A stretch of DNA of 64,000 nucleotides from Candidatus Moraniibacteriota bacterium (GTDB lineage: Bacteria; Patescibacteriota; Minisyncoccia; Moranbacterales; UBA2206). Made by a program: the position numbers and the translations under genes. Positions 9,072-22,387 of this stretch are shown one piece after another. The notes beneath the pieces were generated by a model. That model ran no database searches, had not been told where the DNA came from, and saw nothing but the letters and a program-made list of their open reading frames with translations. The stretch is taken from assembly GCA_038203255.1 (NCBI GenBank), contig JBBREE010000001.1, positions 31,882 to 95,881 on the forward strand, read 5' to 3'. Position 1 is the first letter of the stretch. Each line of letters opens with the position of its first letter.

Positions 9072-9081
9072 CTAGTGCAAT

Positions 9082-9213: not shown

Positions 9214-10257
9214 ATGGATTTTACTAATGAACTTGAAAAAGCCAGGAAGATGGGTTGCGGAGACATCCGCAAGATATACCTTAATTTTATAGAAGTGTTA
9301 AGAGATTATATCAAAATCAGAAGTGTGTCGCTTCCCTTTCCATCAAGCAACCTAGTTCTTATTGGTGGAGGCTCTGGAATATCAACGGTCGGGAGATCTC
9401 TTTATGAAGTAGGCATCTCAAATTTTACATCTATAGCAAGCGTCATGGATGTTGGTGGTGGGAGTGGGGTCATTCAAGATAGATTTTGCATTCCTCACAT
9501 GAATGATGTAATGCAACACCTCATAAATATGAATCCCAGAAAAAATAAGTTTTCTGAATTTATGTCGCTACGAACATCTGACGAATGGAAGCAGGATGGA
9601 TATATCATGATAGCGGCGGCAGTTAACCTATTTGGCGTAGAAAGAGGAATTGACCTTATCGGTTGTCTATTAGAAAATGACCACAGAGCGCTTCCTGTTA
9701 CAAGCCAGCCGTGTGAGCCGATTTTTACTTACCGTGGCAGAGAGTATAAAACGTATGAATTCGCCTTTCTTCCCGATAAAATTGGCGTGGCGGATCATGT
9801 CAAACTTAATGTTTCAGCGAGCCTTCTGCCATCTGTGAGTAAATCTATACAAAACGCGAATGTAGCTGTAATTGGTCCGGGAGATATTCATTTTTCTATT
9901 CTTCCTCCAATGCTCGTGCCAGGAATGTATGAGGCCTTATGTCATGTAAGAAAGATAATTCTTATTGCTAATTTGACGGCGCGTAGAATTGACATCCCTG
10001 GCTTTACGCTCAAGGACTATATTGCCTTTTGGAAGAAAAAGTTACCACAAAAACCGAAATGCAATATTTTGGTTAATTCATTTCAAAACATCAATCAAGA
10101 AGATCCTCCCCTGAAAGATGACATTCACGGCGACTACTACATGGATTGCCACATTCATCGAGCTAACATCGCTGGACACAGCTTAAGCAGAAATAAACAA
10201 CCCCTTCATGATAAACATGCACTGGGGAAATCGCTTAAGTATATTCTAAATATATAG
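9214..10257 (+). CDS. CofD/YvcK (UPF0052) family protein, divergent
   Basis: LIGGGSGISTVGRSL...IASVMDVGGGSGVIQDRF aligns with the YvcK/CofD motifs (GGGTGLS..R.L / DDGGSSG). A later VAVIGPGDIHFSILPPMLVPGM matches the (V/I)IGPGSLYTS(I/V)LPNLLVPG motif. The ORF-track start at 9166 is TTG; an ATG at 9214 follows a GGAGG ribosome-binding site. Confidence 0.65.
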   Translation: MDFTNELEKARKMGCGDIRKIYLNFIEVLRDYIKIRSVSLPFPSSNLVLIGGGSGISTVGRSLYEVGISNFTSIASVMDVGGGSGVIQDRFCIPHMNDVMQHLINMNPRKNKFSEFMSLRTSDEWKQDGYIMIAAAVNLFGVERGIDLIGCLLENDHRALPVTSQPCEPIFTYRGREYKTYEFAFLPDKIGVADHVKLNVSASLLPSVSKSIQNANVAVIGPGDIHFSILPPMLVPGMYEALCHVRKIILIANLTARRIDIPGFTLKDYIAFWKKKLPQKPKCNILVNSFQNINQEDPPLKDDIHGDYYMDCHIHRANIAGHSLSRNKQPLHDKHALGKSLKYILNI

Positions 10258-10374
10258 TCCAGAAATAAAATTATCTAAACCCCTTACGCTGCCAAAGGAC
10301 AGCATAGGGGTTTTCTTTTTTGTATAAAAAAAGCGAGCTGGTGATTCAGCTCGCTTACTCGAAATTAATTTCAC

Positions 10375-11415
10375 TTAACGCTCTCTAGGTATCCAATAAA
10401 AAGTATACGAGGTATCCTCTATTGGATATTTGGTGAAATGCTTAAACTCCAAAGCGTTTATCATGATCGGCAGATACTCTAGCGGCTGTTCCTCTATTCG
10501 ATATTCCGGAACGATTGCTATAGAATACTTCCCAGTCCCTTTGGGAGAAGTAAGAATTGAAGCGCCATGCTGAGGAAGTGTATTGTTCCACGGCTTTGGA
10601 CAAAAACGATCTTTTTCCGTGAATGCAGCATCGATGTATAGGGATGTCCCAAAGATGTTATCAAAAAACCCCAACTCTTTTCGCATACGCCCAATCTTAT
10701 TTGCTTTCGCAACTACCCGACACGCTTCATCCCAAATTTCTGATGAGATTTTATTTCTAATCCAACTCCAGTTTTTAGCTTGTCGCTTACTATAAAGCAA
10801 ATCGAAAACTTCGCGAGGTATTGAATCATATGGCAACGATGTAGCTATTGCCAGTATTTCATCCATAGAGGATGCAGAAATATCAGAGCTATCAACAATA
10901 ACATCATAATCAGGAATCGCAATGATTCTTATGAAGTCAAAATGTTGCTCGGCCAAATTTTTCATTATCTCATGTTTTCGGACAATATCTCTATATGCCC
11001 AGCCAAGAGCATGAAAATGAGGCACCTCATCCCCAATAATGAGATCTATTCCTGGTTCATAATGATGTTTGATTTTCCTGTTGAGAATATCAAACCACCA
11101 GATTCCCCATAGATCACCTTTTCGTGGATAATTCAGCCTCTCGCGTAATTTCATAGTTGAAAGAGCCCCTCCGGAACATCCCCACGTCAGTCCAATTGGG
11201 ATTCTTGTCTCACTACTAATGGCCGTTTCGATGGAATTACGAATCTTTTGCTCTTCGAGCTCAGATATCGCTGTACGTGAATGCCTTTTGAGAATTCTTA
11301 TAATGGAGCTAGTTATATCCTTATCCCTCTTGGGGTTGTACCCGTCCATTTTTGCATCAATTGCCTGATTCATATTGTCAATTTGATCACTCAATTTTGT
11401 TACTAAATGCTCCAT
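10375..11415 (-). CDS. hypothetical 346-aa protein (no recognisable family), convergent with the CofD-like gene
   Basis: Long ORF with a GGAG ribosome-binding site before the ATG at 11415 (the ORF-track start at 11427 is GTG). Motifs GLTWGCSGGALS and PHFHALGW; no match recognised. Confidence 0.5.
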   Translation of the reverse strand: MEHLVTKLSDQIDNMNQAIDAKMDGYNPKRDKDITSSIIRILKRHSRTAISELEEQKIRNSIETAISSETRIPIGLTWGCSGGALSTMKLRERLNYPRKGDLWGIWWFDILNRKIKHHYEPGIDLIIGDEVPHFHALGWAYRDIVRKHEIMKNLAEQHFDFIRIIAIPDYDVIVDSSDISASSMDEILAIATSLPYDSIPREVFDLLYSKRQAKNWSWIRNKISSEIWDEACRVVAKANKIGRMRKELGFFDNIFGTSLYIDAAFTEKDRFCPKPWNNTLPQHGASILTSPKGTGKYSIAIVPEYRIEEQPLEYLPIMINALEFKHFTKYPIEDTSYTFYWIPRER

Positions 11416-11630
11416 ATTTATCTCCACGGTTTAGGATTTAGATGCATTTATATATTTATTAAAGAACAAGACATCGTACAATTAATATCACTTTATGTCA
11501 ATTTTTTTAATTTCTGGGAAGCTCTTATGTATAGAATTCCCAGAGATGTTTTATTTCAGCATTCTTGAAGCTATAAACATTAAGTGTTATAGTTATAATA
11601 TTATTTATTATTTTTTTATCATTCACCCAT

Positions 11631-12473
11631 ATGCCAAACTTCAAATTATCTTTCGTTATTGAAAAAAAACTCTTTGCTTTTTTGGATACCCCGGAAGATT
11701 CACTGATTGATTCCGTCCATTTAATTACTGAAAAATATGCGGACAAATATATTGTTAAAAACATAGAACTTCGCAATGATTCCTGCCCCGAAGAAGCTTA
11801 CCAAAAAATTATAGACCGCTTCAAGCCAGAAATAGAACAATTGCAAAAAGATGGATTTGATTTCACCTTGCACGCCGCGCGAGCTATCCAAGACTCGGAC
11901 AATCTAGATTATAAAATTCTTACTGTTTTGAAAAAAGATGTCGCTCTGGCAGAAACTCTCGGGATAGCAACTATAGTCACCCATGCTTCATTTAGCGTAC
12001 GCTCTCCCGAAGGAAAAAACTACTATTCCATAATGCACCTTTTGCCAGAATTGGATACTCTTAGCAAAGAAACAGGAGTAACAATAGCCATAGAAAACAT
12101 TTCACTTAAAAACGGCATCCTCCAAAATACGAACGATCATTTTTTCGTCCTAGATTTTATTAATAAGAATAATCTCCAGAATCTTGGAATCGCAATTGAT
12201 TTTGGCCATGCTCTTTCCTGTGGATTCAGTACTGATTACATTCTCAATGTCATTGAAAAAGCTAAGGAAAAACTTTTTCACATTCATGCGCATGAAACTA
12301 CTTTCGGTGAAGACTTGCATGCACCTCTTGCTGGAAAACTTGACTGGGGAAAAATTCTTCAGTCTTTAGAAGGCATAACTTATTCCGGAGTTTTCGTGCT
12401 AGAAATGCGCTCCCCTAGCCTTCCTAGTAGCCTAGAATATTTGCAAAGCATTGACGCCACATTTAAAAACTAG
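11631..12473 (+). CDS. sugar phosphate isomerase/epimerase (xylose isomerase-like TIM barrel / AP endonuclease 2 family)
   Basis: Motifs IVTHAS, IAIEN, IDFGHA and HIHAHE, typical metal-ligand strands of this TIM-barrel family. Confidence 0.65.
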   Translation: MPNFKLSFVIEKKLFAFLDTPEDSLIDSVHLITEKYADKYIVKNIELRNDSCPEEAYQKIIDRFKPEIEQLQKDGFDFTLHAARAIQDSDNLDYKILTVLKKDVALAETLGIATIVTHASFSVRSPEGKNYYSIMHLLPELDTLSKETGVTIAIENISLKNGILQNTNDHFFVLDFINKNNLQNLGIAIDFGHALSCGFSTDYILNVIEKAKEKLFHIHAHETTFGEDLHAPLAGKLDWGKILQSLEGITYSGVFVLEMRSPSLPSSLEYLQSIDATFKN

Positions 12474-12758
12474 CCTTTCACTCCTACAGTAAAAGCTAAT
12501 AAATCTAACTCCAATTTCATCTCTGCTATATTCAAGTGGCGTAACATATCCGTTAGGGGGAGCCACGAAAAATTCAAAAAAGACTAACCTAAACGGTATG
12601 GTCTTTTTTTCGTCTCGTGGCGCCGCCATCACTGAAAGCCTTTTATGTTAATCTTTTTTGTAAGTTTTTCGTGGTCGCGCGACGAACGATAGTGAGTTTT
12701 GCGCGACAACATTTTTGAGTGTTGTATAATAAAAACATAACCCAAAAACAAAATCATT

Positions 12759-12887
12759 ATGTTTTATGTTTATCTATTGGAATGTCAGGAAGCTGATGCA
12801 GTTGTAAGAGAAAAATTTCTCAAGGGCGGATCTGGTCGGACGTATCTTAAAAAACAGTTGAAATATTATTTAGAAGAAAAAATTTGA
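12759..12887 (+). pseudogene. GIY-YIG nuclease-like remnant (42 aa)
   Basis: MFYVYLLECQEADAVVREKFLKGGSGRTYLKKQL: a YVYLLEC start and a GxxGRTYLKK segment resemble the short GIY-YIG (YhbQ-like) family, but the middle is missing. Confidence 0.3.
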
Positions 12888-12959
12888 TTTTTAATAAGCT
12901 TTGCACGATAATCAAGGTAAAGTGCCATGGTACGTTACTAAAAATTAAATTAATATAAA

Positions 12960-13127
12960 ATGGAAAACAAAAAAGAAACAAGAAAATTAACCAAGACTGG
13001 GCGTGGGAGTATGTATGTGATTTTACCCAAAGAATTGATTGCTCACTTTGGCTGGCGCGAAAAACAAAAACTGACGGTGGAAAAAGTGAAGGGTGGGATT
13101 TTGATTAAGGATTGGAGGAAGAGATAA
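12960..13127 (+). CDS. AbrB/MazE/SpoVT-like small DNA-binding protein (55 aa), paralog copy 1
   Basis: MENKKETRKLTKTGRGSMYVILPKELIAHFGWREKQKLTVEKVKGGILIKDWRKR shows the swapped-hairpin pattern (TRKxTKxGGSxxVxLPKExxxxLG). A second copy lies at 19384-19551. Confidence 0.55.
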   Translation: MENKKETRKLTKTGRGSMYVILPKELIAHFGWREKQKLTVEKVKGGILIKDWRKR

Positions 13128-13193
13128 AAAAAGCCTCCAGTCCGCATTGCGAACCTTTGGCTTCTTGTGAAAAGAAAAAATGTTTTGAAATTA

Positions 13194-14075
13194 TTAGAGG
13201 CTTCCACCGGATTCTCGGATTTGATTATTTAATTCCTGAGCTTTAACTGCGGCCGCTTCTGCATAGTCTTCTCCGGAACTGGCGAATATAATGCCCGAAG
13301 ATGAGTTGATTGCAATCGAACCTGGTCCACTAAGGGACGCATGCACTGTCTGTTCGATAAACCCTCCTTGAGTTCCAATACCCGGAATGAGAAACCACAA
13401 CTTATCTCCTACCAGCTCTCGAACTCTTTTAAGATGAAAAGAAAAAATATCGCCCGAACTCTTGGGATACTCATGAGCAGCTGCCATAACCAGTCCGGCA
13501 TCTTCGGCAACACCAAGCTCTTCCGCCCATTTAAGAGTTGTCTTGGCAATAAATTCCCAATAAAGATCGCCAGATTCCAGCCGCACATCTTGGACTTCTC
13601 TTGCTGAAGAGTTGCTCGTATAACAAAGACCAACAATGGCTCTGCCGGGATTTTTAGGATCGACGAGCGATTGCATGCAATCTTTGCCCATATAGGGGCT
13701 AAAGTTCATGCCATCCACACCATCTAGATCAAACTGAGCGATCCTATAGCATGCTTGGGTTCTTCCGATATCCCCTCGCTTACAATCAAGAAAAACAGGA
13801 ATGTCTTCATGTTGTTTGTGAATATGCTGGACGATTTTACGAAGAGCCTTTTCTCCATCTGAAATTGCTTCGTAATGCGCCCGCTGAGGCTTAAACAATG
13901 AAGCAAACGGCGCCGTTTCATCAACAATCCTACACATCCAATGAGCCACTTTTTCCCAATCATGTTCGAACCCAACAATTGATGATGGAAGTTTCTCGAG
14001 CAATGGGTCAAGTCCCACACAGACCAGTGAATTTACTTTCTGTTGCCTTTGCGAAAGTTTCTGCCTGAATCCCAT
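13194..14075 (-). CDS. pyrF: orotidine 5'-phosphate decarboxylase, type 2
   Basis: LVCVGLDP and FLDCKRGDIG active-site motifs. Start placed at the Met of MGFRQKL (14075) because the ORF-track start at 14180 overlaps the upstream gene. Confidence 0.7.
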   Translation of the reverse strand: MGFRQKLSQRQQKVNSLVCVGLDPLLEKLPSSIVGFEHDWEKVAHWMCRIVDETAPFASLFKPQRAHYEAISDGEKALRKIVQHIHKQHEDIPVFLDCKRGDIGRTQACYRIAQFDLDGVDGMNFSPYMGKDCMQSLVDPKNPGRAIVGLCYTSNSSAREVQDVRLESGDLYWEFIAKTTLKWAEELGVAEDAGLVMAAAHEYPKSSGDIFSFHLKRVRELVGDKLWFLIPGIGTQGGFIEQTVHASLSGPGSIAINSSSGIIFASSGEDYAEAAAVKAQELNNQIRESGGSL

Positions 14076-14106
14076 AATTCTTCTCCTCTTCTGATTATTA
14101 TTTTTT

Positions 14107-14838
14107 TCACATCGTTGCCACAAGTTCATCCCAGTTTTCTTTAGCTGGAAGAGCGCGTGATCCTTTTTTACAGAACTCACATTCTTCCTCAGCCGGATTG
14201 ACTACGTATGTATTGTAATGCAAACGCCAGATCAATCGGCTACCGTCGATTATTTCGGGCGCGTCTTTGTCAGGCCTATGCACCAGAAGCGGAATGAAGG
14301 GAATGAAATCAACCTGACTTGGATTCCCCTTTCTGATTCCATCTCGGACAGCTTGAGTGGTGAGGCTAGTGGTCAAAAGTTCCTCCACATGTAGCACTCG
14401 CTCGCCCGGAGAAATCACGGCTTTTCCCCAAACCTGCGACTTATTAGATCCTTTTTGCATCGGGTGCCATTTTGCTTTCAAAATATTGGCCACATCTTTC
14501 GAAAGTCCCAACGCGGAAGAATCCGAACCGGTTACCCAGTCTATCGGACCCTTATAGAAAGATTCTAATAAATATACCAGTTGCTGAGCCATGATCTGAC
14601 AAAGATTGCTCCGTTGCAAAACCTTGGGGCAGTTGATATAAATATTACTATGCTTGCCACTTGTGAGAATTACGTGAGGAGCGGTTGGATTTTCCTGACC
14701 CGGATGATGCCAAAAGGCACCGCAAGCTTTGAAAATCATTTCAAGCTCTTCCTTAAGCAATATCCTCTTACAATCACGAGGATCGAGTCGCAAAATATCT
14801 TCATTGGTCAATCCTTGAAGCATTACCGGTATTGGCAT
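14107..14838 (-). CDS. pyrE: orotate phosphoribosyltransferase-like type I PRTase with N- and C-terminal extensions
   Basis: VILTSGKHSNIYIN (compare FTLKSGRKSPYFFN) and the PRPP-binding VLHVEELLTTSLTTQAVRDGIR (compare VMLVDDVITAGTAIRE). Adjacent to pyrF. Confidence 0.55.
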   Translation of the reverse strand: MPIPVMLQGLTNEDILRLDPRDCKRILLKEELEMIFKACGAFWHHPGQENPTAPHVILTSGKHSNIYINCPKVLQRSNLCQIMAQQLVYLLESFYKGPIDWVTGSDSSALGLSKDVANILKAKWHPMQKGSNKSQVWGKAVISPGERVLHVEELLTTSLTTQAVRDGIRKGNPSQVDFIPFIPLLVHRPDKDAPEIIDGSRLIWRLHYNTYVVNPAEEECEFCKKGSRALPAKENWDELVATM

Positions 14839-15002
14839 AATAACCTCCTATCTATTTTATTGTAATAATGTACAAAAAAGTTAGACCCCAAGTCTAACCT
14901 TCCTCATCTGAGTTGATGGTAGTAAATTTATGGATAAAAAGCAAGTATTTTAGGCTGAATGACTATTCGCAATATTTTTAACTTAAATCATGCTGAGGCC
15001 TT

Positions 15003-15038
15003 CATCAAGGTTCGAACTTCTTCCATCGCGCGGAGCCA
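15003..15038. repeat. 36-nt repeat catcaaggttcgaacttcttccatcgcgcggagcca, copy 1
   Basis: Identical 36-mer at 17656-17691. It ends in GGAGCCA, resembling a tRNA 3' end. Confidence 0.7.
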
Positions 15039-15046
15039 GATTACAA

Positions 15047-15072
15047 AAGAGCCCTTTCAAGGCTCTTTTGTG
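15047..15072 (-). terminator. hairpin/T-run terminator downstream of ddl (bidirectional-looking)
   Basis: agagccctttcaaggctctttt. Confidence 0.45.
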
Positions 15073-15138
15073 CTATTATGTCGGTTCGAATATTTCATAC
15101 CCCGCATTAGACGTTCGAACCAGTAAACTGTAAATTTT

Positions 15139-16203
15139 TTAATTCTTTTTGATCCTTTGGCGTTTCAGCGCTCCTTCAATAATTTTATCCAAAAAAACCG
15201 GAAAGCTCATCCCGTACGCAGCAGCGGCTTGGGGCGCAAGGCTAGTAGCGGTCATCCCAGGAATAGTGTTAATTTCAAGAAAATATAATTTATCATCATC
15301 TGCACTCCAAATGAAATCAGCTCGGGCCAGATCAATACACCCGACAGCCTTGAAAATTTTGACTGCATAACGTTGAATTTTTCTTTTAACGTCATCCGAA
15401 ATTTCGGCTGGACAGACTTCTTCCGATCCGCCTGTTTCATATTTCGCCCGATAATCAAACCACCCAGAAACTTTAGGGATAATTTCAATAACCGGAAGCG
15501 CCTTCGGAGCTTTGTCTCCTATTACTGCCACTGTAAGTTCTCTGCCTTTCACAAATTGTTCCAAAAGAACTTCGTTGCCATATTTTAAAGCCTCCTCTAT
15601 TCCAGAAATTAATTTTTCCTTAGAGGTAACCAAGCTTATCCCAACTGAAGATCCAAGCTCTGTTGGTTTTATAACGATTGGAAAATTTAATTTAGCAATT
15701 ATACTCACCGCGCTATATTTTTTATCCCGAGAAATCACTTCATCTTTAGCAATTTTTAATCCCGATGCCTTAGCAATAATTTTAGTCTTGCGTTTATGCA
15801 TAGCCAAAGCGCTAGCCAACGTTCCTGAAAAAACATACGGCAATCCGAGCATTTCCAGTGCGCCTTGCAACTTTCCATCCTCCCCAAAAGTTCCGTGGAT
15901 AATTGGCAAAACCAAATCAATTGGTGGAAATTTTTCCGGAAATTTATTCCTGTCTTCAAAAGAACTCCCGTTCCCCACTCCGCCCTCTCGACTAGCTCCT
16001 TCCAAATTTTCATCTAAATATTTTTGTCCCTCCTCACCCACTAGCCAATGTCCGGACTTAGTAATGGCAATAGGGATAATCTCATACTTATTCTTATCAA
16101 GCGCACTCATGACTTGATTAGCTGATCTCAAAGAAACTTCGTGTTCACCGGATTGTCCGCCAAAGATAACCGCTAATTGTTTTTTTGCGATAGTTTTTTT
16201 CAT
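15139..16203 (-). CDS. ddl: D-alanine--D-alanine ligase
   Basis: N-terminus KKQLAVIFGGQSGEHEVSLRSA plus the ATP-grasp body (EQFVKGRELTVAVIG...). Canonical Ddl. Confidence 0.9.
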   Translation of the reverse strand: MKKTIAKKQLAVIFGGQSGEHEVSLRSANQVMSALDKNKYEIIPIAITKSGHWLVGEEGQKYLDENLEGASREGGVGNGSSFEDRNKFPEKFPPIDLVLPIIHGTFGEDGKLQGALEMLGLPYVFSGTLASALAMHKRKTKIIAKASGLKIAKDEVISRDKKYSAVSIIAKLNFPIVIKPTELGSSVGISLVTSKEKLISGIEEALKYGNEVLLEQFVKGRELTVAVIGDKAPKALPVIEIIPKVSGWFDYRAKYETGGSEEVCPAEISDDVKRKIQRYAVKIFKAVGCIDLARADFIWSADDDKLYFLEINTIPGMTATSLAPQAAAAYGMSFPVFLDKIIEGALKRQRIKKN

Positions 16204-16342
16204 AAAATTAAAGTTAATATTTATACAAATGGTAGCTTGAATTGTTAATTATTGCAACAATATAACAGATTTTACTAAAAAAATAAAGCGGCTATCGAAA
16301 AACGACAACCGCCTGCTTCTGCCTTTGATGGAAAATTTTCCA

Positions 16343-17125
16343 TCAAGGTTCTATGTATGAGTAACAAGCAATCCCTCCCTTAACCAAGGCGTCCATCTGA
16401 TTACCAAAATTAAAATGCCACACCTCCGGGCCATAACAGGTAAATCCAGCCTTTACCATAGACCTAAGAAGAATGTTCCGATTCCGACATATTTTGGCAT
16501 CATTACCAGGAAATCTTTTTCTCTTAATTTTGAGATGATAGAAGGCTCCAGCATCATCTTTCATCCAATCAAATGGCACTCCGAGATTCTCAGCTTCCCC
16601 TTCCCTATAAAGCCACACGTCCACCGATCCTCCTGTCAAATGAGGGCTAGGGGAAGAAATTTCTTTCGTAGGCCAACTTACGTATGTACGATTAGCTTCG
16701 AAAATAACCTTTCTCTTTTCTGGAGAAAGACCATCAAAACACTCCTTAATGTTTTCAACAGAGACTAGTTTATCAAACTGTTCCTTAAGGCCAAACTTTT
16801 CCACTGTAAACAGTTTCATGTAATACCAAAAAAGATTCTCTTGAAGTTCCACCGATCTCCACCCATCATAAACCCTGAGATCAAAGCCCTGATTTTTTAA
16901 GGTTTCACGAACCGCTAAAGTCTTATGCAAAACCTCTTCTCGCAGATACAGCTTCTCGTTTTTTGCTATTTTTAATACGTGATAATAAAAAGAAAAAACG
17001 ATTTCTTCAGGAACCTCAATGAGTGGTTGATTATTTTCCTCGATCGGAATCTTTCTCCAATCACCCCGCCTATACGCCATCAATGTGACATACCTGACCA
17101 TTTGCAACTTGAGATAATTCAACAT
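16343..17125 (-). CDS. D-alanyl-D-alanine dipeptidase (VanX/DdpX, peptidase M15D)-like
   Basis: SPHLTGGSVDV (SxHxxGxAxD zinc motif) and EVWHFNFG (ExxH). The ORF-track start at 17143 is TTG; an ATG at 17125 follows a GGAGG ribosome-binding site. Confidence 0.65.
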   Translation of the reverse strand: MLNYLKLQMVRYVTLMAYRRGDWRKIPIEENNQPLIEVPEEIVFSFYYHVLKIAKNEKLYLREEVLHKTLAVRETLKNQGFDLRVYDGWRSVELQENLFWYYMKLFTVEKFGLKEQFDKLVSVENIKECFDGLSPEKRKVIFEANRTYVSWPTKEISSPSPHLTGGSVDVWLYREGEAENLGVPFDWMKDDAGAFYHLKIKRKRFPGNDAKICRNRNILLRSMVKAGFTCYGPEVWHFNFGNQMDALVKGGIACYSYIEP

Positions 17126-17486
17126 TTTGACCTCCTGTCCCAATTTTGAAGAATTGTTCTTCCTTTATCTGCTCCACTATTCTTTTCTTATCCATATATC
17201 TTATAACATCGAATGCACGACATGTTGTGTTGCGGCAAATATTAGGACGGTTATCATAATCAGTACACAATCCCGTTTTTACATTGAAATTGGTACAGAT
17301 ATATTGTTTAAGTCTAACTGTATCCGGATTTGATTCAGGGGCTAATATTCCTTCCAACTCTACAAAAGGAAGATTATCTCTTTCCGGATCTATAAGCCTC
17401 CTGCTGTTTATTTTCACAGGATTGCAGCACATACTACATCCAAACAACAGACAAACATTCGTTTTTTCTCCAATACATCCTTTCAT
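17070..17486 (-). CDS. Cys-rich protein with CxxxxCxxCC motif (YkgJ/UPF0153-like putative Fe-S/Zn chelating domain)
   Basis: CLLFGCSMCC near the N-terminus plus further Cys residues (CTNF, CTDY, CRNTTC). Overlaps the dipeptidase gene 5' end in another frame. Confidence 0.45.
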   Translation of the reverse strand: MKGCIGEKTNVCLLFGCSMCCNPVKINSRRLIDPERDNLPFVELEGILAPESNPDTVRLKQYICTNFNVKTGLCTDYDNRPNICRNTTCRAFDVIRYMDKKRIVEQIKEEQFFKIGTGGQNVELSQVANGQVCHIDGV

Positions 17487-17655
17487 GGCTACTCCTCCTA
17501 TAATAATATTGAGTTATGGGTCTTAGCTATGCTTTTGTCAAAGGACTTATTTAACTGTTTTCTCTATCAATTCTGTTCATATCCTGAGCATATTAGTCTA
17601 TCATCTTTTTGCAAGAAGTCAAAATTTATAATCCGCACTCTACTTGCGGTTACAG

Positions 17656-17711
17656 CATCAAGGTTCGAACTTCTTCCATCGCGCGGAGCCACAAAAAACT
17701 CAAAAAAGATT
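17656..17711. repeat. 36-nt repeat copy 2 (17656-17691), followed by a 20-nt right arm caaaaaactcaaaaaagatt that also occurs near 12574-12593
   Basis: The left arm is identical to 15003-15038. The right arm ggagccac[a/g]aaaaa[c/t]tcaaaaaaga[t/c]t is shared with 12566-12595. Confidence 0.7.
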
Positions 17712-17812
17712 GGAGATTAGTTGTTTTTGTATCATTTTCTAAAAGCATACTTGACTTTTTGTATCATAAATGATACAATTAAATCATAATTTAGCTATAT
17801 AATGATACAATT

Positions 17813-18895
17813 ATGCTAACTTACTCTAATTTAAACGCCAGACAACAATCTATCATAGACTTCGCAAAAGAAAAGCCGTCATTTCAAACGAAGGATGTTT
17901 TTTTGGCTGTCAAAGGAAAATTCGATGTCTCCCGCCTAACGGTTGTTCGCGATCTTTCATTTTTGGAAAAAAATGATGTCTTGAAAAAGCAAGGAGCCGG
18001 AAGAGCCGTGACTTATGCAATAACAAAAAAATATCTATCTCTCGAAAAAATTGACGTAGAAAAATATTTCTCAATTCCTTCTTCAAAAAGAAAGGCCGAC
18101 CCGCTATTCAACAATGATGTTTTTTCCATCTTAAACGAAAATCTTTTTTCAGAAGAAGAAATGAAAAAACTAAATTTAGCCAACGAAAAATATCTAAAAG
18201 CAAAAAATAAATTAGAAAAAGAAAGCCCCACGATTCTCAGAAAAGAATGGCAACGCTTAGTGATAGAACTATCCTGGAAATCATCTGAAATCGAAGGAAA
18301 CACCTACTCTCTTTTGGAAACCGAAGCGCTTCTTCGTGAGATGCGTTTTGCAAAAGGGAAAGATAGAGCAGAGGCGCAAATGATACTCAATCACAAAAAT
18401 TCCCTTGATTTTATCTTGTCCGACAAAAATTATTTTAAAAATATCAACCTTGATAAAATCAAAAAAATTCATGAGCTACTGACGGAAAATATAGACATCA
18501 AAAAAGATTTCCGAGATCATCCGGTCGGGATTACCGGAACAATCTATCGGCCTCTTCCAAGAAAAAAAGACATTACTTCGGCTATGGAAAAATTGAACGA
18601 CACTTTCTCACAAATTTCAAATCCTTTTGTGAAAGCCTTTGTTTCTTTGATTATGATTGCCTACATACAACCGTTCGAGGACGGAAACAAACGCACTTCG
18701 CGAATCATTGCCAACGCCATTTTGCACTCCCATGATAAATCGATTTTGTCCTATCGTGATGTCGATTCTATTGAATACAAAAAGGCTATGATATTGTTTT
18801 ATGAGAAAAATAACATTTCCTATGTAAAAGAAATATTCATTGCTCAAGTTGAATTTGCAACAGATAATTATTTTTCACAAAGTCAAAGTGGATGA
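17813..18895 (+). CDS. Fic-family protein with N-terminal winged-helix/HTH and a degenerate Fic motif
   Basis: The Fic core motif reads IQPFEDGNKRTSR; the canonical form is HPFx(D/E)GNGRxxR. An S-S-E-I-E-G-N segment matches the (S/T)xxxE(G/N) inhibitory-helix motif, and an N-terminal HTH is present. Confidence 0.7.
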   Translation: MLTYSNLNARQQSIIDFAKEKPSFQTKDVFLAVKGKFDVSRLTVVRDLSFLEKNDVLKKQGAGRAVTYAITKKYLSLEKIDVEKYFSIPSSKRKADPLFNNDVFSILNENLFSEEEMKKLNLANEKYLKAKNKLEKESPTILRKEWQRLVIELSWKSSEIEGNTYSLLETEALLREMRFAKGKDRAEAQMILNHKNSLDFILSDKNYFKNINLDKIKKIHELLTENIDIKKDFRDHPVGITGTIYRPLPRKKDITSAMEKLNDTFSQISNPFVKAFVSLIMIAYIQPFEDGNKRTSRIIANAILHSHDKSILSYRDVDSIEYKKAMILFYEKNNISYVKEIFIAQVEFATDNYFSQSQSG

Positions 18896-19199
18896 GGCAG
18901 ATATTGCTAAACCGTTTTAGATAGTATTAAAAATGATTTCCAAAGCCTTTTTTTGCTTCTCATCATTGACATCCCCTTTTCAAAATGCTACGATACAAAA
19001 TCGAAAAACGTTTCGATTTTAAGAGAAAGAGCAATCAAGCACATGAACAATTTCATAAAATGTTAATTGAAACAGGCTGAAGTTTTAGCTGAAACCAAAG
19101 ACAGGAAGACTTTGAAGCTTTCATATGTCATGGTTCGTGCCCTTTCTCTCGTTGAGACATCGGGAATCGGAATAACTCCAGGCATCTAATTTTACACAC

Positions 19200-19244
19200 A
19201 GAGCCGCACTCACAGAAATATGTGAGTTGCGGTTCTTTTTTTAT
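19200..19244 (+). terminator. hairpin + T9 terminator in the Fic/AbrB-like intergenic region
   Basis: agccgcactcacagaaatatgtgagttgcggtt followed by cttttttttatt. Confidence 0.5.
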
Positions 19245-19383
19245 TATTAACTAACGACTTCCCCATTCGCCTCTTACCCCATCCTGATTGATAATAGAAC
19301 TGACCCCGTAAAGGCTTGCGCCAACGGGGTAAACGTTAGGGATAACTTTAGGCTAACGTTAGTAAGAAATAATTTTAAAACAT

Positions 19384-19551
19384 ATGCAAAAGCAAAAAGA
19401 AACTCGAAAACTTACTAGAAACGGCGGCGGAACGATGTATGTTTCTTTGCCGAAAGAATTTGTGAAAGATTTAGGATGGCGTGAACGGCAAAAATTAGTT
19501 GTTGAAAGAGTGAAGAGTGGGATTTTGATTAAGGATTGGAGGAAAAGATAA
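19384..19551 (+). CDS. AbrB/MazE/SpoVT-like small DNA-binding protein (55 aa), paralog copy 2
   Basis: MQKQKETRKLTRNGGGTMYVSLPKEFVKDLGWRERQKLVVERVKSGILIKDWRKR. About 65% identical to the copy at 12960 and shares the identical C-terminus ILIKDWRKR. Confidence 0.55.
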   Translation: MQKQKETRKLTRNGGGTMYVSLPKEFVKDLGWRERQKLVVERVKSGILIKDWRKR

Positions 19552-19666
19552 ATTTCACAACCTATTTTTCCATATTAGTAAAATGTTCGGTCGAGGACGG
19601 TCCTCGATCTTTCCTCAATCTTTCAAGTAGAACTAAAAAATGGCCTTTTTCTATACACAAGGCTCT

Positions 19667-19846
19667 TTAACAAATAGTGTGTTGAATTAATATAAAGAGT
19701 GGTACGAAAGCGAGCATAACTTTAGCTATATAGTTATCAATATTTCTGAATCCAAATGATATTCTTTTAATCATTTTAATCTTGGTGTGTACTCCTTCGG
19801 TAAAAGCATTGGTAGAATAGTTGTCGAAATAATTTAGAATATTTTC
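19667..19846 (-). mobile_element. ISL3-family transposase C-terminal remnant (about 59 aa, no N-terminus)
   Basis: Minus-strand frame ENILNYFDNYSTNAFTEGVHTKIKMIKRISFGFRNIDNYIAKVMLAFVPLFILIQHTIC* matches the conserved ISL3 C-terminus (TNAxxEGxNNKIKxIKRxxYGFRNFxNF...). It has no start codon and no upstream transposase body. Confidence 0.6.
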
Positions 19847-19849
19847 TTT

Positions 19850-19943
19850 CCATCACCTGATTGGATGATCTTAAGGAAACTTCATGCTCACCAGATTGTC
19901 CGCCAAAGATGACAGCCAGTTGTTTTTTATTATTATTTTTCAT
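19850..19943 (-). pseudogene. duplicated 5' fragment of ddl fused out of frame to the IS remnant
   Basis: atgaaaaataataataaaaaacaactggctgtcatctttggcggacaatctggtgagcatgaagtttcc encodes MKNNNKKQLAVIFGGQSGEHEVS, nearly identical to the N-terminus of ddl at 16203. It runs into the transposase fragment in a +1 frame. Confidence 0.65.
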
Positions 19944-19992
19944 AAATATTTTTTAGCCTTATTTATAACTACCTTAAGGATATCAACTTGTC

Positions 19993-20030
19993 GCCTTTTT
20001 GCAAGAAGTTAGAAGTTATATCCCGAATTC
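19993..20030. repeat. second repeat family ctttttgcaagaagt[c/t]a[a/g]aa[t/g]ttata (copies at 17604-17640 and 19993-20030)
   Basis: About 28 of 38 nt are shared; each copy sits beside one of the other repeat or fragment elements. Confidence 0.4.
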
Positions 20031-20124
20031 TATTAAGGCAATAAATCATTCCCGTACCCGTAGTAAGAAAGAAAAACCCATCGCTCAATTGAGCGATGGG
20101 TTTTTTGAGAATTTTTTATATTTT

Positions 20125-20883
20125 CTATTTACACGTATAGCCACCATCAATGACCAACTCACTTCCAGTGACAAATTTTGATTCATCTGATATTAGGTAG
20201 AGAATACCATAAGCAATATCTATTGGTTCGCCGACATGGCCGATTGGGTGCAAACTATCGAGATGTTCTCTGAAACCTGGAGTTTCTTCACCAAGTTTTT
20301 CAACAAGCGGAGTCCAGATGAAACCTGGATGTACAGAATTAACTCGTATGCCATCCTTGGCATAAATCAAAGCGTCATTTTTAGACATCAATCTAACTGC
20401 TCCTTTTGAAGCATGATAAGGTGGAATGTCACCCGCCCCAATCATTCCATAGATGGAGGAAAGATTCACGATACTTCCCTTGCCTGCTTTTTGCATATAC
20501 GGAATTGCGTGCTTTGTGCAAAAGAAAACTCCTTTCACATTCACGTTCATCACTGCGTCCCATTCTGCCTCTGTTAGTTCGTGCGTTGGCTTGTCAGCAC
20601 CTGCGATTCCTGCATTATTCACCGTAGCGTCAAGTTTCCCAAATGTTTCAACAACTTCAGCATAAATTTTTTTTACTTCATCTTCACTGGCTACATCAAG
20701 ATGCCAAAATTTTGCCACTCCGCCAAATTCTTCAATCTCCTGAACCAATGCCTGACCTTCTTGGTCTAAGATATCAGTCACGGCAACTTTTGCACCTTCT
20801 TTGGCTAAGAGGATACATGTTTCACGTCCAATGCCCAGTGCACCGCCAGTCACAACAACAACTTTTTCTTCTGCTCTTTTCAT
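20125..20883 (-). CDS. SDR-family oxidoreductase (3-oxoacyl-ACP reductase-like)
   Basis: TGGALGIGRE Rossmann motif, YHASKGAV catalytic YxxxK and an NNAG motif. Confidence 0.8.
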   Translation of the reverse strand: MKRAEEKVVVVTGGALGIGRETCILLAKEGAKVAVTDILDQEGQALVQEIEEFGGVAKFWHLDVASEDEVKKIYAEVVETFGKLDATVNNAGIAGADKPTHELTEAEWDAVMNVNVKGVFFCTKHAIPYMQKAGKGSIVNLSSIYGMIGAGDIPPYHASKGAVRLMSKNDALIYAKDGIRVNSVHPGFIWTPLVEKLGEETPGFREHLDSLHPIGHVGEPIDIAYGILYLISDESKFVTGSELVIDGGYTCK

Positions 20884-21072
20884 ATTTTTATTTTTTATTT
20901 CTTACTTATTCATTATAACAGAATATCATTTTTTATTAAATAGCAAAGCATTATACCCTGTCGCCTTTGGAGGGGTGCGCTACTAAAAAATAAAAAAACA
21001 AATTCAAGACGCTCCCATTGGGAGCGTCTCTACGATTGAAACTATTCAGTTGTAATTTCGGCTGATTGATAA

Positions 21073-21561
21073 TTATTTACCAAATCCTCCACCTTTTTGA
21101 CCACCTCGCATTCCACCTTGATGTCCTCCAAGGTATTGTTGGTCAATGCCATTTTCTGTTAACCATGCGGTCATCTCTTCTTGATGAGCTTTTCTGTCGA
21201 CTTGCTTCTCTTCTTGTGTTAGATCTTTAGAAGCTCCTCGATTCGCGTCTCTTTCGGTTTTAAGCTCCGCCATTTTATCAATGATTAATTGCTTCTGCTC
21301 TTGAGAAAGCTTCCCTTCGCTCACTGCTTGAGCTAGACGCTCTTCTTGTTTTTCTTGCATCTGAGTCTGACGCGCCTCTTGATTTTCCTTAAATACCGTT
21401 TGAACTTCATCAGTATTTAAATTAAATTTTTCGACAAGCTTTTGAATGATTGTGCTTTGGCCATTCCCACTCGCCGAAACAGAAGCTGAACTGACTCCAT
21501 AGAGTCCAGTAAAAGCGATTGCTCCGAGAATAAGTGACGGAATGATTACTTTTTTCTTCAT
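21073..21561 (-). CDS. secreted LTXXQ-motif protein (CpxP/Spy-like periplasmic stress protein), tentative
   Basis: Signal peptide, LSQEQKQ and LTQEEKQ repeats, and a Gly-rich tail. Lies beside the ECF sigma module. Confidence 0.35.
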   Translation of the reverse strand: MKKKVIIPSLILGAIAFTGLYGVSSASVSASGNGQSTIIQKLVEKFNLNTDEVQTVFKENQEARQTQMQEKQEERLAQAVSEGKLSQEQKQLIIDKMAELKTERDANRGASKDLTQEEKQVDRKAHQEEMTAWLTENGIDQQYLGGHQGGMRGGQKGGGFGK

Positions 21562-21666
21562 TATTTTTTTTAATTAATTATTAATGCCCTTTGAGCGCTA
21601 GCTTGATCATTGGGCTTCATAGTAGTTATACGTGAACCGACAGAAATGTTTGCAAAAAAAGCGTTG

Positions 21667-22383
21667 TTATTTTTGCATACCTCTGGCGCGAGGTCCACCC
21701 AAAGGTGCTTGTCTTATCGCAGAAGCCCCGAAAACATATTCACCTTTTTTCTCACCCACGATATCAACCATCTCCCCTTCTTTCATTTCTACCCTCCTTT
21801 TGATTTCAGTGTCCGCTGAATAAAAAACCTTCCAATTATCTCCCTTTTGTGTTTTTAGCAAGAATGACTGGGCTGATTCAATTTTGATAATTTCTCCTCC
21901 CAAAAGACCGTCTTCCGGTCTTTGCCAACGTCCCACTATTGGTCGAACTAAATTATTCGGGCCTGGAATATCCATCTCCAAGCGACTATTTATTTTTGAA
22001 AAATTAACCAAGACGCCAATAGCAAAAACAGACAACGCGATGATGCTTGCGATAAAAAGAAGGCTGTATCGATAGCCTCTTTTTGTTTTTCGAAAAACCA
22101 TAAAGCCGGAGAAAATTGCTACTGCCAAAAGGACCATCCACAAGTAAGGCATCGTAACAAAAAATAAAAAGAAAAAATTTCTCAATTTTAAACTTCTTAT
22201 AATTTCCGGGCTCAAGTCGGAAACATTTAAAATGATTAAGGAGAAAAACAAGGCTCCTAACAAAATAATCAAAGAAAATAAGACCCAGAAAGCATAATTT
22301 CTCCAATGAGTTTTCAATTTAGAATCAGGGAGAATATGCTCCTCCTTGATCTTTTCGGTAATTTTTTTTGAGAAATCTTCCAT
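21667..22383 (-). CDS. membrane protein, putative anti-sigma factor (by position)
   Basis: Multi-TM protein encoded 4 nt downstream of the ECF sigma gene. Confidence 0.35.
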   Translation of the reverse strand: MEDFSKKITEKIKEEHILPDSKLKTHWRNYAFWVLFSLIILLGALFFSLIILNVSDLSPEIIRSLKLRNFFFLFFVTMPYLWMVLLAVAIFSGFMVFRKTKRGYRYSLLFIASIIALSVFAIGVLVNFSKINSRLEMDIPGPNNLVRPIVGRWQRPEDGLLGGEIIKIESAQSFLLKTQKGDNWKVFYSADTEIKRRVEMKEGEMVDIVGEKKGEYVFGASAIRQAPLGGPRARGMQK

Positions 22384-22387
22384 ACAA

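Follow-up and report, generated by a model that had tools for sequence, protein, structure and literature searches.

Layout of the tract downstream of tRNA-Asn

The window, which is the whole 64-kb stretch of DNA that was analysed, belongs to an uncultured Candidatus Moranbacteria (Patescibacteria/CPR) genome, and its best Ddl relatives are Moranbacteria. Within 8.7 kb, four tRNA-Asn 3′ junctions lie on a single strand with a working gene at only one of them, and three relics (sites A, B and C) split the region into four segments. The first carries a CofD-like gene, a 350-aa unknown and a TIM-barrel gene; the second, after site A, a GIY-YIG remnant, AbrB-like gene 1, pyrF and a pyrE-like gene; the third the native CxxC–vanX-like–ddl operon; and the fourth, after site C, a Fic gene, AbrB-like gene 2, an ISL3 stub and a ddl fragment. 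Three pseudogene fragments lie within the tract, whose features are as follows.

9000–9072, plus strand: intact tRNA-Asn(GUU), the putative hotspot anchor
9073–12558, genes on both strands: segment 1
9166–10257, plus strand: CofD/YvcK-like gene
10375–11427, minus strand: gene for a 350-aa protein of unknown function
11631–12473, plus strand: xylose-isomerase-like TIM-barrel gene
12559–12715, plus strand: site A, the last 5–7 nt of a tRNA-Asn (GGAGCCA, 12559–12565), then flank I
12759–12887, plus strand: GIY-YIG remnant that has lost ~45 internal codons in frame, and with them the catalytic core
12932–13128, plus strand: AbrB-like gene 1 (ORF 12960–13127, preceded by a conserved 28-nt region), small stand-alone DNA-binding protein
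13194–14838, minus strand: variable-slot cargo, pyrF (13194–14180) and a weakly OPRTase-like 243-aa gene (14107–14838)
15003–15130, plus strand: site B, a degenerate 36-nt tRNA-Asn 3′ half (15003–15038), then flank II
15139–17486, minus strand: native operon of CxxCxxCC (17070–17486), vanX-like M15 peptidase (16343–17143) and ddl (15139–16203)
17580–17642, minus strand: D3, probable operon promoter region, homologous to D3′
17656–17709, plus strand: site C, the 36-nt tRNA-Asn relic (17656–17691) followed by flank I up to its nucleotide 18 (17692–17709), where it is truncated
17813–18895, plus strand: Fic-domain protein with N-terminal HTH
19356–19552, plus strand: AbrB-like gene 2 (ORF 19384–19551 with upstream region), paralogue of gene 1
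19661–19849, minus strand: ISL3-family IS remnant, one terminal inverted-repeat end and the last ~60 transposase codons, remainder deleted
19850–19943, minus strand: ddl′, what is left of a second, diverged ddl (its first 31 codons), running into the IS remnant interior
19970–20032, minus strand: D3′, promoter-region homologue immediately upstream of ddl′

The intact tRNA-Asn, called by ARAGORN, scores 75 bits against the Rfam tRNA model, and its 3′ flank (TAGTGC and a terminator) is of the type seen in relative L027, with 94.6% identity over window positions 8968–9078. Sites A (12559), B (15003) and C (17656) share its strand and lack the tRNA 5′ half, and their 3′ flanks correspond to the DNA immediately past the intact tRNA-Asn in relatives, namely L004 and L025 for A and C and L012 for B. 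At site A, flank I is a terminator hairpin within a longer structured palindrome (fold z-score −4.4), and the site with its flank matches the tRNA-Asn 3′ DNA of L004/L025 at 77% over 159 nt (blastn, E 4e-24); the L004 match starts 5 nt within tRNA-Asn, and the 29 nt upstream of GGAGCCA bear no significant resemblance to the 36-nt repeat. Site B, whose flank II is a hairpin terminator, matches L012 positions 1714–1780 at 82% over 67 nt (blastn, E about 1e-12 to 2e-13), comprising the final 11 nt of tRNA-Asn, at the end of its 3′ exon, and 56 nt of flank, and sits exactly where, at the stop codon of ddl, the window ceases to be homologous to L094, its closest relative. Site C (window 17661–17709) matches the tRNA final 24 nt and 20 nt of flank in L004 (19767–19724; blastn 77.6%, E 0.001), and its flank agrees with that of site A at 23 of 25 nt, a score reached in 1 of 2000 shuffles. 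Collectively, these comparisons identify the 36-nt repeats and the site at 12559 as leftover tRNA-Asn 3′ ends with their downstream flanks, an identity that the original prediction had missed.

The 36-nt element has exactly the two exact copies that had been described (15003–15038 and 17656–17691; no matches in 100 shuffles), forming a direct repeat that flanks 2,653 bp, with both copies at or near the ends of homology to L094. The element is degenerate, with a broken T-stem and a 5-nt insertion, yet its copies are identical, which indicates either that the B/C duplication took place at the relic rather than at a working tRNA, or that gene conversion homogenised the copies. No copy was found in the genome, viral or metagenome collections searched, and hence no donor element or attP.

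Two diverged copies of one backbone

In the segments after sites A and C the tract repeats one backbone, single in relatives, as two partial copies that are collinear and diverged. This backbone runs from the tRNA-Asn end through flank I, GIY-YIG, an AbrB-like gene, a variable slot and ddl to the promoter, and site C/flank I, the AbrB gene, the ddl 5′ end and D3 have identical order and strand in both copies. Self-comparison of all 64 kb by BLAST bears out the claimed duplications, with four significant direct repeats of which three fall within the tract, and all six rearrangement signatures of the original prediction were found where it had placed them.

The two 55-aa AbrB/SpoVT-like ORFs are indeed paralogous, with 69% protein identity and 72% DNA identity over 197 nt (28 nt upstream included), and match Pfam MazE_antitoxin with E 4.9e-5 and 1.1e-5. 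Their orphaned state had been counted as a sign of rearrangement, a reading that fails: homologues are solitary, without a recognisable toxin, in 7 of 7 other contexts, and solitary genes are normal for this 55-aa AbrB-like family. In L004/L025 the pair of GIY-YIG then AbrB gene is kept, and the GIY-YIG gene there, intact and 96 aa long, is a homologue of the proposed remnant (tblastn E 1e-11 and 5.5e-12; blastn 80% over 91 nt); the L004 gene matches Pfam PF01541, and the remnant itself gives no Pfam hit.

Copy 1 retains the CxxC–vanX-like–ddl operon (assigned by Pfam and NCBIfam), which is collinear with that of L094 at 83–90% nucleotide identity and also occurs in L024, with vanX–ddl in L020. 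The description of the tract as cargo interleaved with rearranged core genes thus needs amending, as the ddl, vanX-like and Cys-rich genes constitute a native operon, not cargo. Region D3 probably serves as the promoter of this operon, with minus-strand elements TTGCAA/TTGACT, 16 nt, TATGCT/TAGACT. The second repeat family, likewise predicted, pairs D3 with D3′ at 71% identity (82% in a 38-nt core); measured against the whole window the match has E 2.9e-5, and 0 of 2000 shuffles attain its score.

Copy 2 retains only 31 ddl codons, joined to the ISL3 stub. As had been claimed, ddl′ is a ddl 5′ fragment (80–83% DNA identity to the ddl start; Pfam Dala_Dala_lig_N E 1.6e-7), the stub is a transposase C-terminus (Pfam DDE_Tnp_ISL3 E 8.3e-15, profile positions 198–240 of 240), and their junction is out of frame, offset by one base; the ISL3-type end at 19661 (GGCTCTTTAAC...) is the sole copy in the window. 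Over 26 aligned codons, ddl′ and ddl differ by 10 synonymous changes and 1 non-synonymous change, which indicates that both were working while diverging and that the truncation is comparatively recent. Moreover, ddl′ is about equally far from the resident ddl (80% nucleotide identity) and from the ddl of other lineages (77–81%), and its layout, with the promoter directly before ddl, is that of other lineages, whereas the resident order is promoter, CxxC, vanX, ddl.

Segment 1, annotated by Pfam and NCBIfam, is bounded exactly by the tRNA end (GGAGC) on one side and, on the other, by the flank adjoining the tRNA in L004/L025 (L004 alignment), and its three genes are all absent from the tRNA-Asn and ddl loci of relatives. 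In the variable slot, pyrF scores 157 bits against NCBIfam pyrF_sub2 (cut-off 110.6); its best relatives (60–72%) are Falkowbacteria and unclassified MAGs with no neighbours in common with the window, and it is in no Moranbacteria ddl locus examined. The adjoining 243-aa OPRTase-like gene matches pyrE models only below cut-off (E 4.5e-10) and has no PDB match. The Fic protein (Pfam Fic E 2e-15), which resembles the SoFic defence protein (PADLOC E 1.3e-21), has no orthologue in relatives' loci and is accessory cargo of copy 2. The gene identities first proposed stand for pyrF and ddl, above NCBIfam cut-offs, and for Fic and CxxCxxCC by Pfam, and are weak and below cut-off for the pyrE-like and vanX-like genes.

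The locus in related genomes

The nearest relatives compared are 78–84% identical in Ddl. In L025 and L095 the anchors (tRNA-Asn, GIY-YIG, AbrB, ddl, ArsR/ArsP, ABC-F, RpoD) keep their order and orientation: L025, reversed, reads tRNA-Asn, GIY-YIG, AbrB, ..., ddl (minus), ..., ABC-F, RpoD, and in L095 ddl adjoins ArsR/ArsP. Gene content between these anchors differs in every relative examined, and ddl is found both left and right of tRNA-Asn. The claim that the tract is not ordinary core synteny accordingly holds for the variable content and not for the order of the anchors, which indicates a common scaffold with many variable slots as background rather than a foreign block. The suggested GC or tetranucleotide shift was not detected, and the tyrosine or serine recombinase sought alongside it is not encoded among window ORFs of at least 110 aa; one similarity query was also without match.

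In L024, a decayed large serine recombinase gene abuts tRNA-Asn, and group I introns interrupt tRNA-Asn in L012 and L030, one with an HNH ORF. All GIY-YIG genes in the fetched loci are close to tRNA-Asn, at 6–301 nt in four lineages and 1.2 kb for an extra copy in L026, and the window's remnant likewise follows site A. The 41 other tRNAs of the set have no such gene nearby; the association is biased by sampling, since the loci were collected around ddl and AbrB, both linked to tRNA-Asn.

Origin of the tract

The tract is, by a modest balance of the evidence, a recombination and decay hotspot anchored on tRNA-Asn, into which Moranbacteria DNA was inserted more than once and in which redundant genes decayed. 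The original prediction of a hotspot beside a tRNA gene is borne out in that rearrangement and decay are tied to tRNA-Asn; for integration itself we infer the mechanism. DNA from related Moranbacteria would have entered repeatedly through recombination, most likely site-specific and of att type, within the 3′ portion of tRNA-Asn or of a relic, by an integrase now lost or encoded elsewhere, each insertion leaving a displaced tRNA 3′ fragment. Decay of redundant genes would have followed, of GIY-YIG by its in-frame deletion and of the second ddl by a deletion that ran into an ISL3 element inserted nearby. Tandem island arrays with tRNA-fragment boundaries are an established phenomenon (PMC9580842). 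The relics with their flanks, the exact 36-nt repeat near the ends of homology to L094, the collinear paralogous blocks, the anchor order shared with relatives, the features of ddl′ and the recombinase remnant at the same site in L024 speak for insertion; against it are the missing recombinase among window ORFs of at least 110 aa, the degeneracy of the identical 36-nt copies and the lack of a match to them in the collections searched, the 5–7 nt of tRNA kept at site A, the bracketing by B and C of a native operon in place of the usual island cargo, and the uniform composition.

The same structure could have had another driver, which we hold to be unlikely: double-strand breaks made by selfish endonucleases at or near tRNA-Asn, stimulating gene conversion, segmental duplication and illegitimate repair. 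Such endonucleases might be encoded by the small GIY-YIG genes that abut tRNA-Asn in this clade, possibly acting with the AbrB-like neighbour, and by the HNH ORF in the tRNA-Asn group I intron; tRNA fragments and diverged tandem copies would then arise without an integrase, consistent with its absence. The closeness of GIY-YIG genes to tRNA-Asn alone and the introns of L012 and L030 fit such a course, and a precedent exists in SegB of phages T4/T6, a GIY-YIG homing endonuclease of the tRNA region that drives that region's co-inheritance and segmental amplification (PMC2330249, PMC13096335). However, the GIY-YIG proteins of this clade are 82–96 aa and consist of the catalytic domain alone, whereas Seg and I-TevI enzymes have a DNA-binding domain; the match to a PHROG homing endonuclease extends over 31 residues and is weak (E 6e-5), the tRNA-Asn association carries the sampling bias noted above, the window's copy is dead, and tRNA 3′ fragments on one strand are more typical of att recombination.

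Improbable, too, is an ancient tandem duplication, in place, of the backbone between the tRNA-Asn end and the ddl promoter, whose copies would afterwards have diverged for a long time and lost different parts with no horizontal input. Such a duplication would explain why four collinear same-strand paralogous blocks abut, D3 ending at 17642 and site C starting at 17656, and differential loss could interconvert the relatives' arrangements with ddl left or right of tRNA-Asn. Yet AbrB1 resembles its homologues from other genomes (up to 85%) more closely than it does AbrB2 (69%), the ddl′ distances and operon layout disagree with it, the 36-nt copies at B and C are 100% identical against 17–31% divergence elsewhere, the lineage matched by flank II of site B is a third one, L012, and neither segment 1 nor pyrF is represented in the other copy. 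More doubtful again is a metagenome assembly artefact, in which locus variants of co-occurring populations were joined at common repeats such as the 36-nt element. The window does come from a metagenome-assembled contig, one backbone stands in tandem in two diverged versions, and relatives' contigs (L014, L016) often stop at tRNA-Asn, and an identical Ddl is recorded on one 119.7-kb NCBI contig; but the sole exact common sequence, at 36 nt, falls below the final k-mer length of current assemblers, neither the ddl′/ISL3 nor the D3/C junction has a repeat able to mislead an assembler, and the in-frame GIY-YIG deletion and IS stub are features of biological decay. Ordinary, conserved core synteny in which the repeats arose by chance, for which the anchor order shared with L025 and L095 and the unshifted composition might be cited, has only a negligible probability and is refuted by repeats far beyond chance, by variable between-anchor content in every relative and by the three pseudogene fragments.

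Read as a site of repeated insertion and decay at tRNA-Asn, the tract would represent a genomic-island hotspot of a familiar kind, here in a little-studied lineage and with the recombinase gene no longer present.

Relics of tRNA-Asn downstream of the intact gene

The tract at about 12500–20110, with the segment that precedes it, is bounded at one end by an intact tRNA-Asn gene (9000–9072), which together with its first six downstream bases is 94.6% identical to the corresponding sequence of L027 (L numbers denote loci fetched from related genomes). Every item that the original prediction listed for the tract is present in the window, and self-BLAST of the whole window places three of its four significant direct repeats there. 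Specifically, the 36-nt element occurs in exactly two copies where none is expected, and the second repeat (17580–17642 and 19970–20032) is also significant (E 2.9e-5), its score being reached in 0 of 2000 shuffles. The fourth repeat, a 31-nt pair of 90% identity at 47242–47272 and 47786–47816, lies near the 5′ end of a gene for a heavy-metal P-type ATPase. The principal features of the tract are as follows:

12559, tRNA strand: site A, tRNA-Asn 3′-like sequence
12960–13127: AbrB1, 55-aa AbrB-like gene
15003, tRNA strand: site B, tRNA-Asn 3′-like sequence with the 36-nt element
17580–17642: D3, probable promoter region before the ddl operon
17656, tRNA strand: site C, tRNA-Asn 3′-like sequence with the 36-nt element
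19384–19551: AbrB2, 55-aa AbrB-like gene
19667–19849: stub of an ISL3 transposase gene
19943–19850: ddl′, 31-codon second ddl
19970–20032: D3′, probable promoter region before ddl′

Comparison of the tract's intergenic DNA with the loci from relatives is decisive for the reading of these repeats. Site A (12559–12715) aligns at 77% over 159 nt (E 4e-24) to L004 DNA, the match beginning 5 nt within the intact tRNA-Asn and running on downstream, where a GIY-YIG gene and then an AbrB-like gene follow in the same order as after site A. At site C, positions 17661–17709, comprising most of the 36-nt copy and 18 nt beyond it, align to the last 24 nt of the L004 tRNA-Asn and 20 nt of flank I, the DNA directly 3′ of the L004 and L025 tRNA-Asn. 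At site B, positions 15029–15095, comprising the end of the other 36-nt copy and its hairpin, match L012 at 82% over 67 nt (E ~1e-12 to 2e-13), covering the last 11 nt of the tRNA-Asn and the DNA downstream of it (flank II). In a multiple alignment, the 36-nt element lines up with the T-loop, acceptor strand and CCA end of tRNA-Asn, in degenerate form and with 5 nt inserted. The tRNA-like sequence kept amounts to 24–31 nt at sites B and C and 5–7 nt at site A, which retains only GGAGCCA; all three relics lie on the same strand as the tRNA and are degenerate rather than identical to its present sequence. Judged by sequence, the repeats are thus relics of tRNA-Asn 3′ ends, which sharpens the original interpretation. 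With relics and flanks matched, the 8.7 kb after the tRNA gene holds four tRNA-Asn 3′ junctions on one strand, carrying three flank types, each of which adjoins an intact tRNA-Asn in a different lineage.

Sites A, B and C all lack a preceding tRNA 5′ half, ARAGORN reports no pseudo-tRNA at these sites, and Rfam searches at gathering and relaxed thresholds return no known RNA at the repeats. A full diverged 36-nt element at site A is rejected, its score being reached in 1502 of 2000 shuffles. Searches of the loci by blastn-short with seven tRNA-Asn sequences yield no further tRNA fragments, and a pseudo-tRNA suspected by eye downstream of the L026 tRNA is unsupported and was dropped. An exact search for the 36-nt core gives no match in GTDB species genomes, IMG/VR or JGI metagenomes, collections that evidently lack the window's own genome. 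Additionally, the DNA between the tRNA end and the GIY-YIG gene is strongly structured, with z-scores of −4.4 (window 12559–12715) and −4.9 (L004 19455–19752); a long hairpin there encloses a terminator, and where its arms differ between the two genomes the changes compensate each other (CCACG/CGTGG in the window against CTGCG/CGCAG in L004). L004 holds two tandem copies of a ~115-nt unit in this interval, which matches no Rfam family.

The doubled backbone, its two ddl genes and its surroundings

Four homologous blocks are found both in 12559–17642 and in 17656–20032, their order and strand unchanged, and the two copies are separated by a gap of 13 nt:

Block 1: tRNA relic with flank I
Block 2: AbrB-like gene with its upstream region
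Block 3: ddl 5′ end
Block 4: D3 promoter region

In L025 and L004, read in reverse, this backbone occurs once, as tRNA-Asn, flank I, GIY-YIG, AbrB, a variable slot (holding a dipeptidase and restriction-modification genes) and ddl, with ddl on the opposite strand and ABC-F and RpoD further on, the order and orientation being those of the window. The tRNA-Asn lies 3–9 kb from ddl in L024, L025, L026, L027 and L030. Because relatives keep the anchor order and the proximity of tRNA-Asn, ddl and ArsR–ArsP, the scaffold, as far as sequence comparison goes, is common to the clade, consisting of shared anchor genes with variable slots in between. In this comparison, which covers relatives only 65–84% identical in Ddl, slot contents differ in all of them, and segment 1 (9073–12558) is missing between tRNA-Asn and flank I in L004 and L025.

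The ddl, vanX-like and Cys-rich genes, previously listed among interleaved cargo and rearranged core genes, are not cargo and form a native operon that is collinear with L094, the closest relative, and recurs in others. The CxxC–vanX-like–ddl operon is 83–90% identical in nucleotides to L094 from 17550 to 15158 and is also found in L024, with vanX–ddl in L020. Homology to L094 runs out at the stop codon of ddl, immediately ahead of site B with its flank II; at the other end it stops ~100 nt short of site C, so that two identical relics bracket the operon at or near synteny breakpoints. A vancomycin-resistance (vanH–vanA–vanX) reading is rejected by NCBIfam scores: the best models for the window ddl are D-Ala-D-Ala ligases, above their cut-offs, all Van models fall far below theirs, and the M15 peptidase (vanX-like) reaches 24.9 bits where the VanX cut-off is 320; no vanH or vanRS occurs in the tract. 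In L094 the vanX-like gene is called as a 136-aa fragment and carries an in-frame TAG at ~910–925 where the window has TGG (Trp, in FDWMKDD), which could reflect a pseudogene, a sequencing error or recoding. Ddl homologues number in the thousands, the nearest at 71–84% identity and, where the source gives a name, from Candidatus Moranbacteria, Patescibacteria or Parcubacteria.

Genes without a counterpart in the relatives' tRNA-Asn/ddl neighbourhoods are pyrF, a weakly OPRTase-like gene, Fic and the three segment 1 genes. The best pyrF relatives (60–72%) come from other CPR groups or unclassified MAGs, and the pyrF-anchored loci in GTDB genomes (L006–L011) have no neighbours in common with the window. 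The Fic protein (17813–18895) matches the PADLOC model for SoFic, a single-gene defence protein (E 1.3e-21), as the sole match of the PADLOC scan; it also matches two phage protein families of unknown function, and PHROGs matches comprise Fic and, weakly, the L004 GIY-YIG protein. Exact-protein look-ups for the window Ddl and Fic return no match. Between Fic and AbrB2, the interval 18966–19242 contains a sequence that matches a promoter well (TTGACA and TACGAT spaced by 17 nt, plus an upstream TG) and a strong terminator hairpin ~200 nt past it, making a candidate small RNA or small-protein gene, conserved in no fetched locus and matching no Rfam family.

The ddl fragment comprises 31 codons of the ddl N-terminus and, as predicted, lies one base out of frame with the ISL3 stub. 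The stub corresponds to the last 43 positions of the transposase profile (E 8e-15; positions 198–240 of the 240 in DDE_Tnp_ISL3), with no full gene left, and terminates at 19661 in a repeat of the GGCTCTT type that occurs nowhere else in the window. No second ISL3 end is found in the window at up to three mismatches or in IMG/VR, and the two terminal inverted repeats with target-site duplication of a full ISL3 element are not present. The junction falls within ddl as well as within the ISL3 element, so a deletion took away the rest of both. Over 26 aligned codons, ddl′ differs from ddl by 10 synonymous changes and 1 non-synonymous change, and this mostly synonymous pattern indicates that ddl′ diverged while functional. 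Its nucleotide identity is 80% to the resident ddl versus 77–81% to ddl of other lineages, and its layout, with the promoter directly upstream, is that of other lineages. On this evidence ddl′ is what is left of a second ddl locus, probably acquired horizontally, that then became redundant and decayed, and a ddl of a related lineage seems to have taken the place of the other. This resembles xenologous gene displacement with IS-associated pseudogenisation in that two ddl genes diverged under purifying selection and just 31 codons of one persist, fused to what remains of an ISL3 transposase gene; it differs in that the junction inside ddl and the IS is not a simple insertion or IS-adjacent deletion, and, with 31 codons to go by, either window ddl may have been the original resident.

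The two 55-aa ORFs are paralogues as proposed (69% identical in protein, 72% in DNA over 197 nt), both borderline against Pfam MazE_antitoxin/AbrB PF04014 (23.6 and 25.7 bits; cut-off 24.7), and homologues outside the window resemble AbrB1 more closely (up to 85%) than AbrB2 does. Their orphaned state, however, is not a sign of rearrangement, because standing alone is normal for the family. Homologues of 53–57 aa occur in several Moranbacteria, more than one within a few kb in L014, and their contexts vary (before ddl, hrcA or a kinase gene, or after GIY-YIG). No recognisable toxin lies beside either window copy, the homologues in L001, L004, L012 and L013, the two copies in L014 or the homologue on a 212-kb JGI contig. 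A toxin–antitoxin reading is therefore rejected for want of a partner gene: the protein matches the AbrB/SpoVT DNA-binding domain (Pfam MazE_antitoxin) of MazE/AbrB type II antitoxins, but an adjacent toxin is found in 0 of 9 contexts, and a C-terminal tail for toxin binding is missing. In Moranbacteria these proteins behave as a family of small regulators that stand alone and occur in several copies.

The left 9 kb of the window is occupied by housekeeping genes (M50 peptidase, NDK, RecA, RodZ-like protein, FtsK), and a 462-aa clade-specific protein precedes the tRNA-Asn. Relatives of its gene are distant (63% or less) and on short contigs; one of these, L016, ends inside a tRNA-Asn, so the adjacency is conserved there. 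To the right lie SDR, an ECF-type sigma factor, RND efflux genes, MarR, hemerythrin, ArsP, CorA and BacA, followed by an ABC-F protein, P-type ATPases, RpoD, DnaG and RpoB/C. In L095, ArsR and ArsP directly adjoin the 5′ side of ddl, whereas in the window they lie 10.7–14.5 kb away (30666–32383). Window 20111–30665, containing the SDR, sigma factor, efflux pump, MarR and hemerythrin genes, thus also looks inserted or variable, and the variable region may extend well past 20.1 kb.

Endonuclease genes, recombinases and the origin of the tract

The GIY-YIG remnant aligns to both ends of the intact 96-aa GIY-YIG gene of L004 and L025, with an in-frame gap of ~45 codons, and is missed by Pfam; the catalytic domain (PF01541) is deleted in the window copy and present in the relatives' genes, whose 82–96-aa proteins consist of that domain only, with no attached DNA-binding domain. 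Small GIY-YIG genes lie 6–301 nt from tRNA-Asn, on the same strand and upstream or downstream of it, in four other lineages. These genes and the window's remnant are:

L014, 66–317: GIY-YIG gene
L026, 6429–6677: GIY-YIG gene
L030, 4947–5183: GIY-YIG gene
L025, 19150–19437: GIY-YIG gene
Window, 12759–12887: GIY-YIG remnant

None of the 41 other tRNAs in the fetched loci has a GIY-YIG gene near it, and the pattern may represent an endonuclease–tRNA association in a sample biased by how the loci were collected. Furthermore, the tRNA-Asn(GUU) genes of L012 (1105–1724) and L030 (4590–4903) each contain a group I intron (Rfam RF00028, 72 and 77 bits) inserted in the anticodon loop behind nucleotide 34, of ~545 nt with a 107-aa HNH-type ORF in L012 and of 241 nt with no ORF in L030; the window tRNA-Asn has no intron. 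A literature search for bacterial group I introns in connection with tRNA-Asn yielded papers on mitochondrial and chloroplast genomes only.

The rearrangement signatures next to a tRNA gene thus stand as an observation, the repeats being tRNA-Asn 3′ relics, and their predicted interpretation as an integration hotspot is partly supported. The evidence favours repeated att-type recombination at tRNA-Asn and its relics, by a recombinase that would now be lost or encoded elsewhere; the structure of the tract is observed directly, while the process is deduced from it. This reading draws on the same-strand tRNA 3′ fragments, on the exact 36-bp repeat bracketing 2.65 kb and on a decayed large serine recombinase abutting the L024 tRNA-Asn. 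That gene, a 386-aa ORF at L024 1836–2996, has two domains typical of large serine recombinases, Recombinase and zinc-ribbon; it has no N-terminal catalytic domain and runs into the 3′ end of tRNA-Asn, and is thus a decayed integrative element at the same tRNA. Against att-type recombination, the relic present in two copies is degenerate, the operon between these copies is native, and neither a recombinase gene nor a compositional shift is found: Pfam detects no tyrosine or serine recombinase among window ORFs of at least 110 aa and small ORFs of the tract, tblastn with the L024 recombinase gives no match in the window, and every 4-kb window across the tract stays within ~1.4 sd of the mean in GC and tetranucleotide composition.

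Such recombination is the known pattern of tandem island arrays at tRNA and tmRNA genes, which are bounded by displaced tRNA 3′ fragments, a pattern exploited by Islander and TIGER (PMC9580842). As in such arrays, an intact tRNA lies at one end, same-strand 3′ fragments each mark a segment boundary, segments differ between relatives, and the cargo includes a defence-like SoFic-like Fic, metabolic genes and an IS remnant. Unlike them, the window's 64 kb yields no integrase gene within the ORFs searched, the fragments are degenerate (those of 36 nt are unable to restore a functional tRNA), one of the "islands" consists of a native operon for the cell wall, the tract bears no compositional signature, and the flanks right of the fragments match tRNA-adjacent DNA of three different related lineages.

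The main alternative to att-type recombination is break-driven exchange at tRNA-Asn, consistent with the small GIY-YIG genes adjoining it in four other lineages and with the group I introns, one bearing an HNH gene. By analogy, this would recall SegB, a free-standing GIY-YIG homing endonuclease of the tRNA gene region of T4/T6 phages (PMC2330249; PMC13096335). The Moranbacteria gene likewise adjoins a tRNA gene, in a region with non-reciprocal exchange and segmental duplication between related genomes; in contrast to SegB, its proteins are 82–96 aa long, have no DNA-binding domain and are not known to cleave DNA, and the window copy is internally deleted and resides in a cellular rather than a phage genome. 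It seems improbable that the GIY-YIG gene adjoining tRNA-Asn and the 55-aa AbrB-like DNA-binding gene often beside it form a two-part, free-standing, homing-endonuclease-like module that targets tRNA-Asn and, with the HNH intron in the same tRNA, makes it a break-driven hotspot. If so, chromosomal genes nearby, ddl among them, would be duplicated there and passed between related CPR genomes with no integrase involved, a parallel in cells to the way SegB amplifies tRNA regions in phages. The repeated blocks might also stem from in-place duplication of the backbone or from assembly chimerism, both less likely.

Significance for CPR bacteria

Bacteria of the CPR (Patescibacteria) have tiny genomes with few recognised mobile elements, and to our knowledge their gene exchange is poorly documented. 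In other bacteria, island arrays anchored at tRNA genes and decay linked to IS elements are textbook matter, which keeps the broader significance modest: the locus is a fresh CPR example of a well-known kind. Methodologically, tRNA 3′ relics too degenerate for tRNA finders are still recognisable through flanks shared with intact tRNAs of relatives. For the CPR, the locus provides a concrete example of exchange and turnover focused on one tRNA gene, the genes moved including ddl for the cell wall, others for pyrimidine synthesis and the defence-like Fic.
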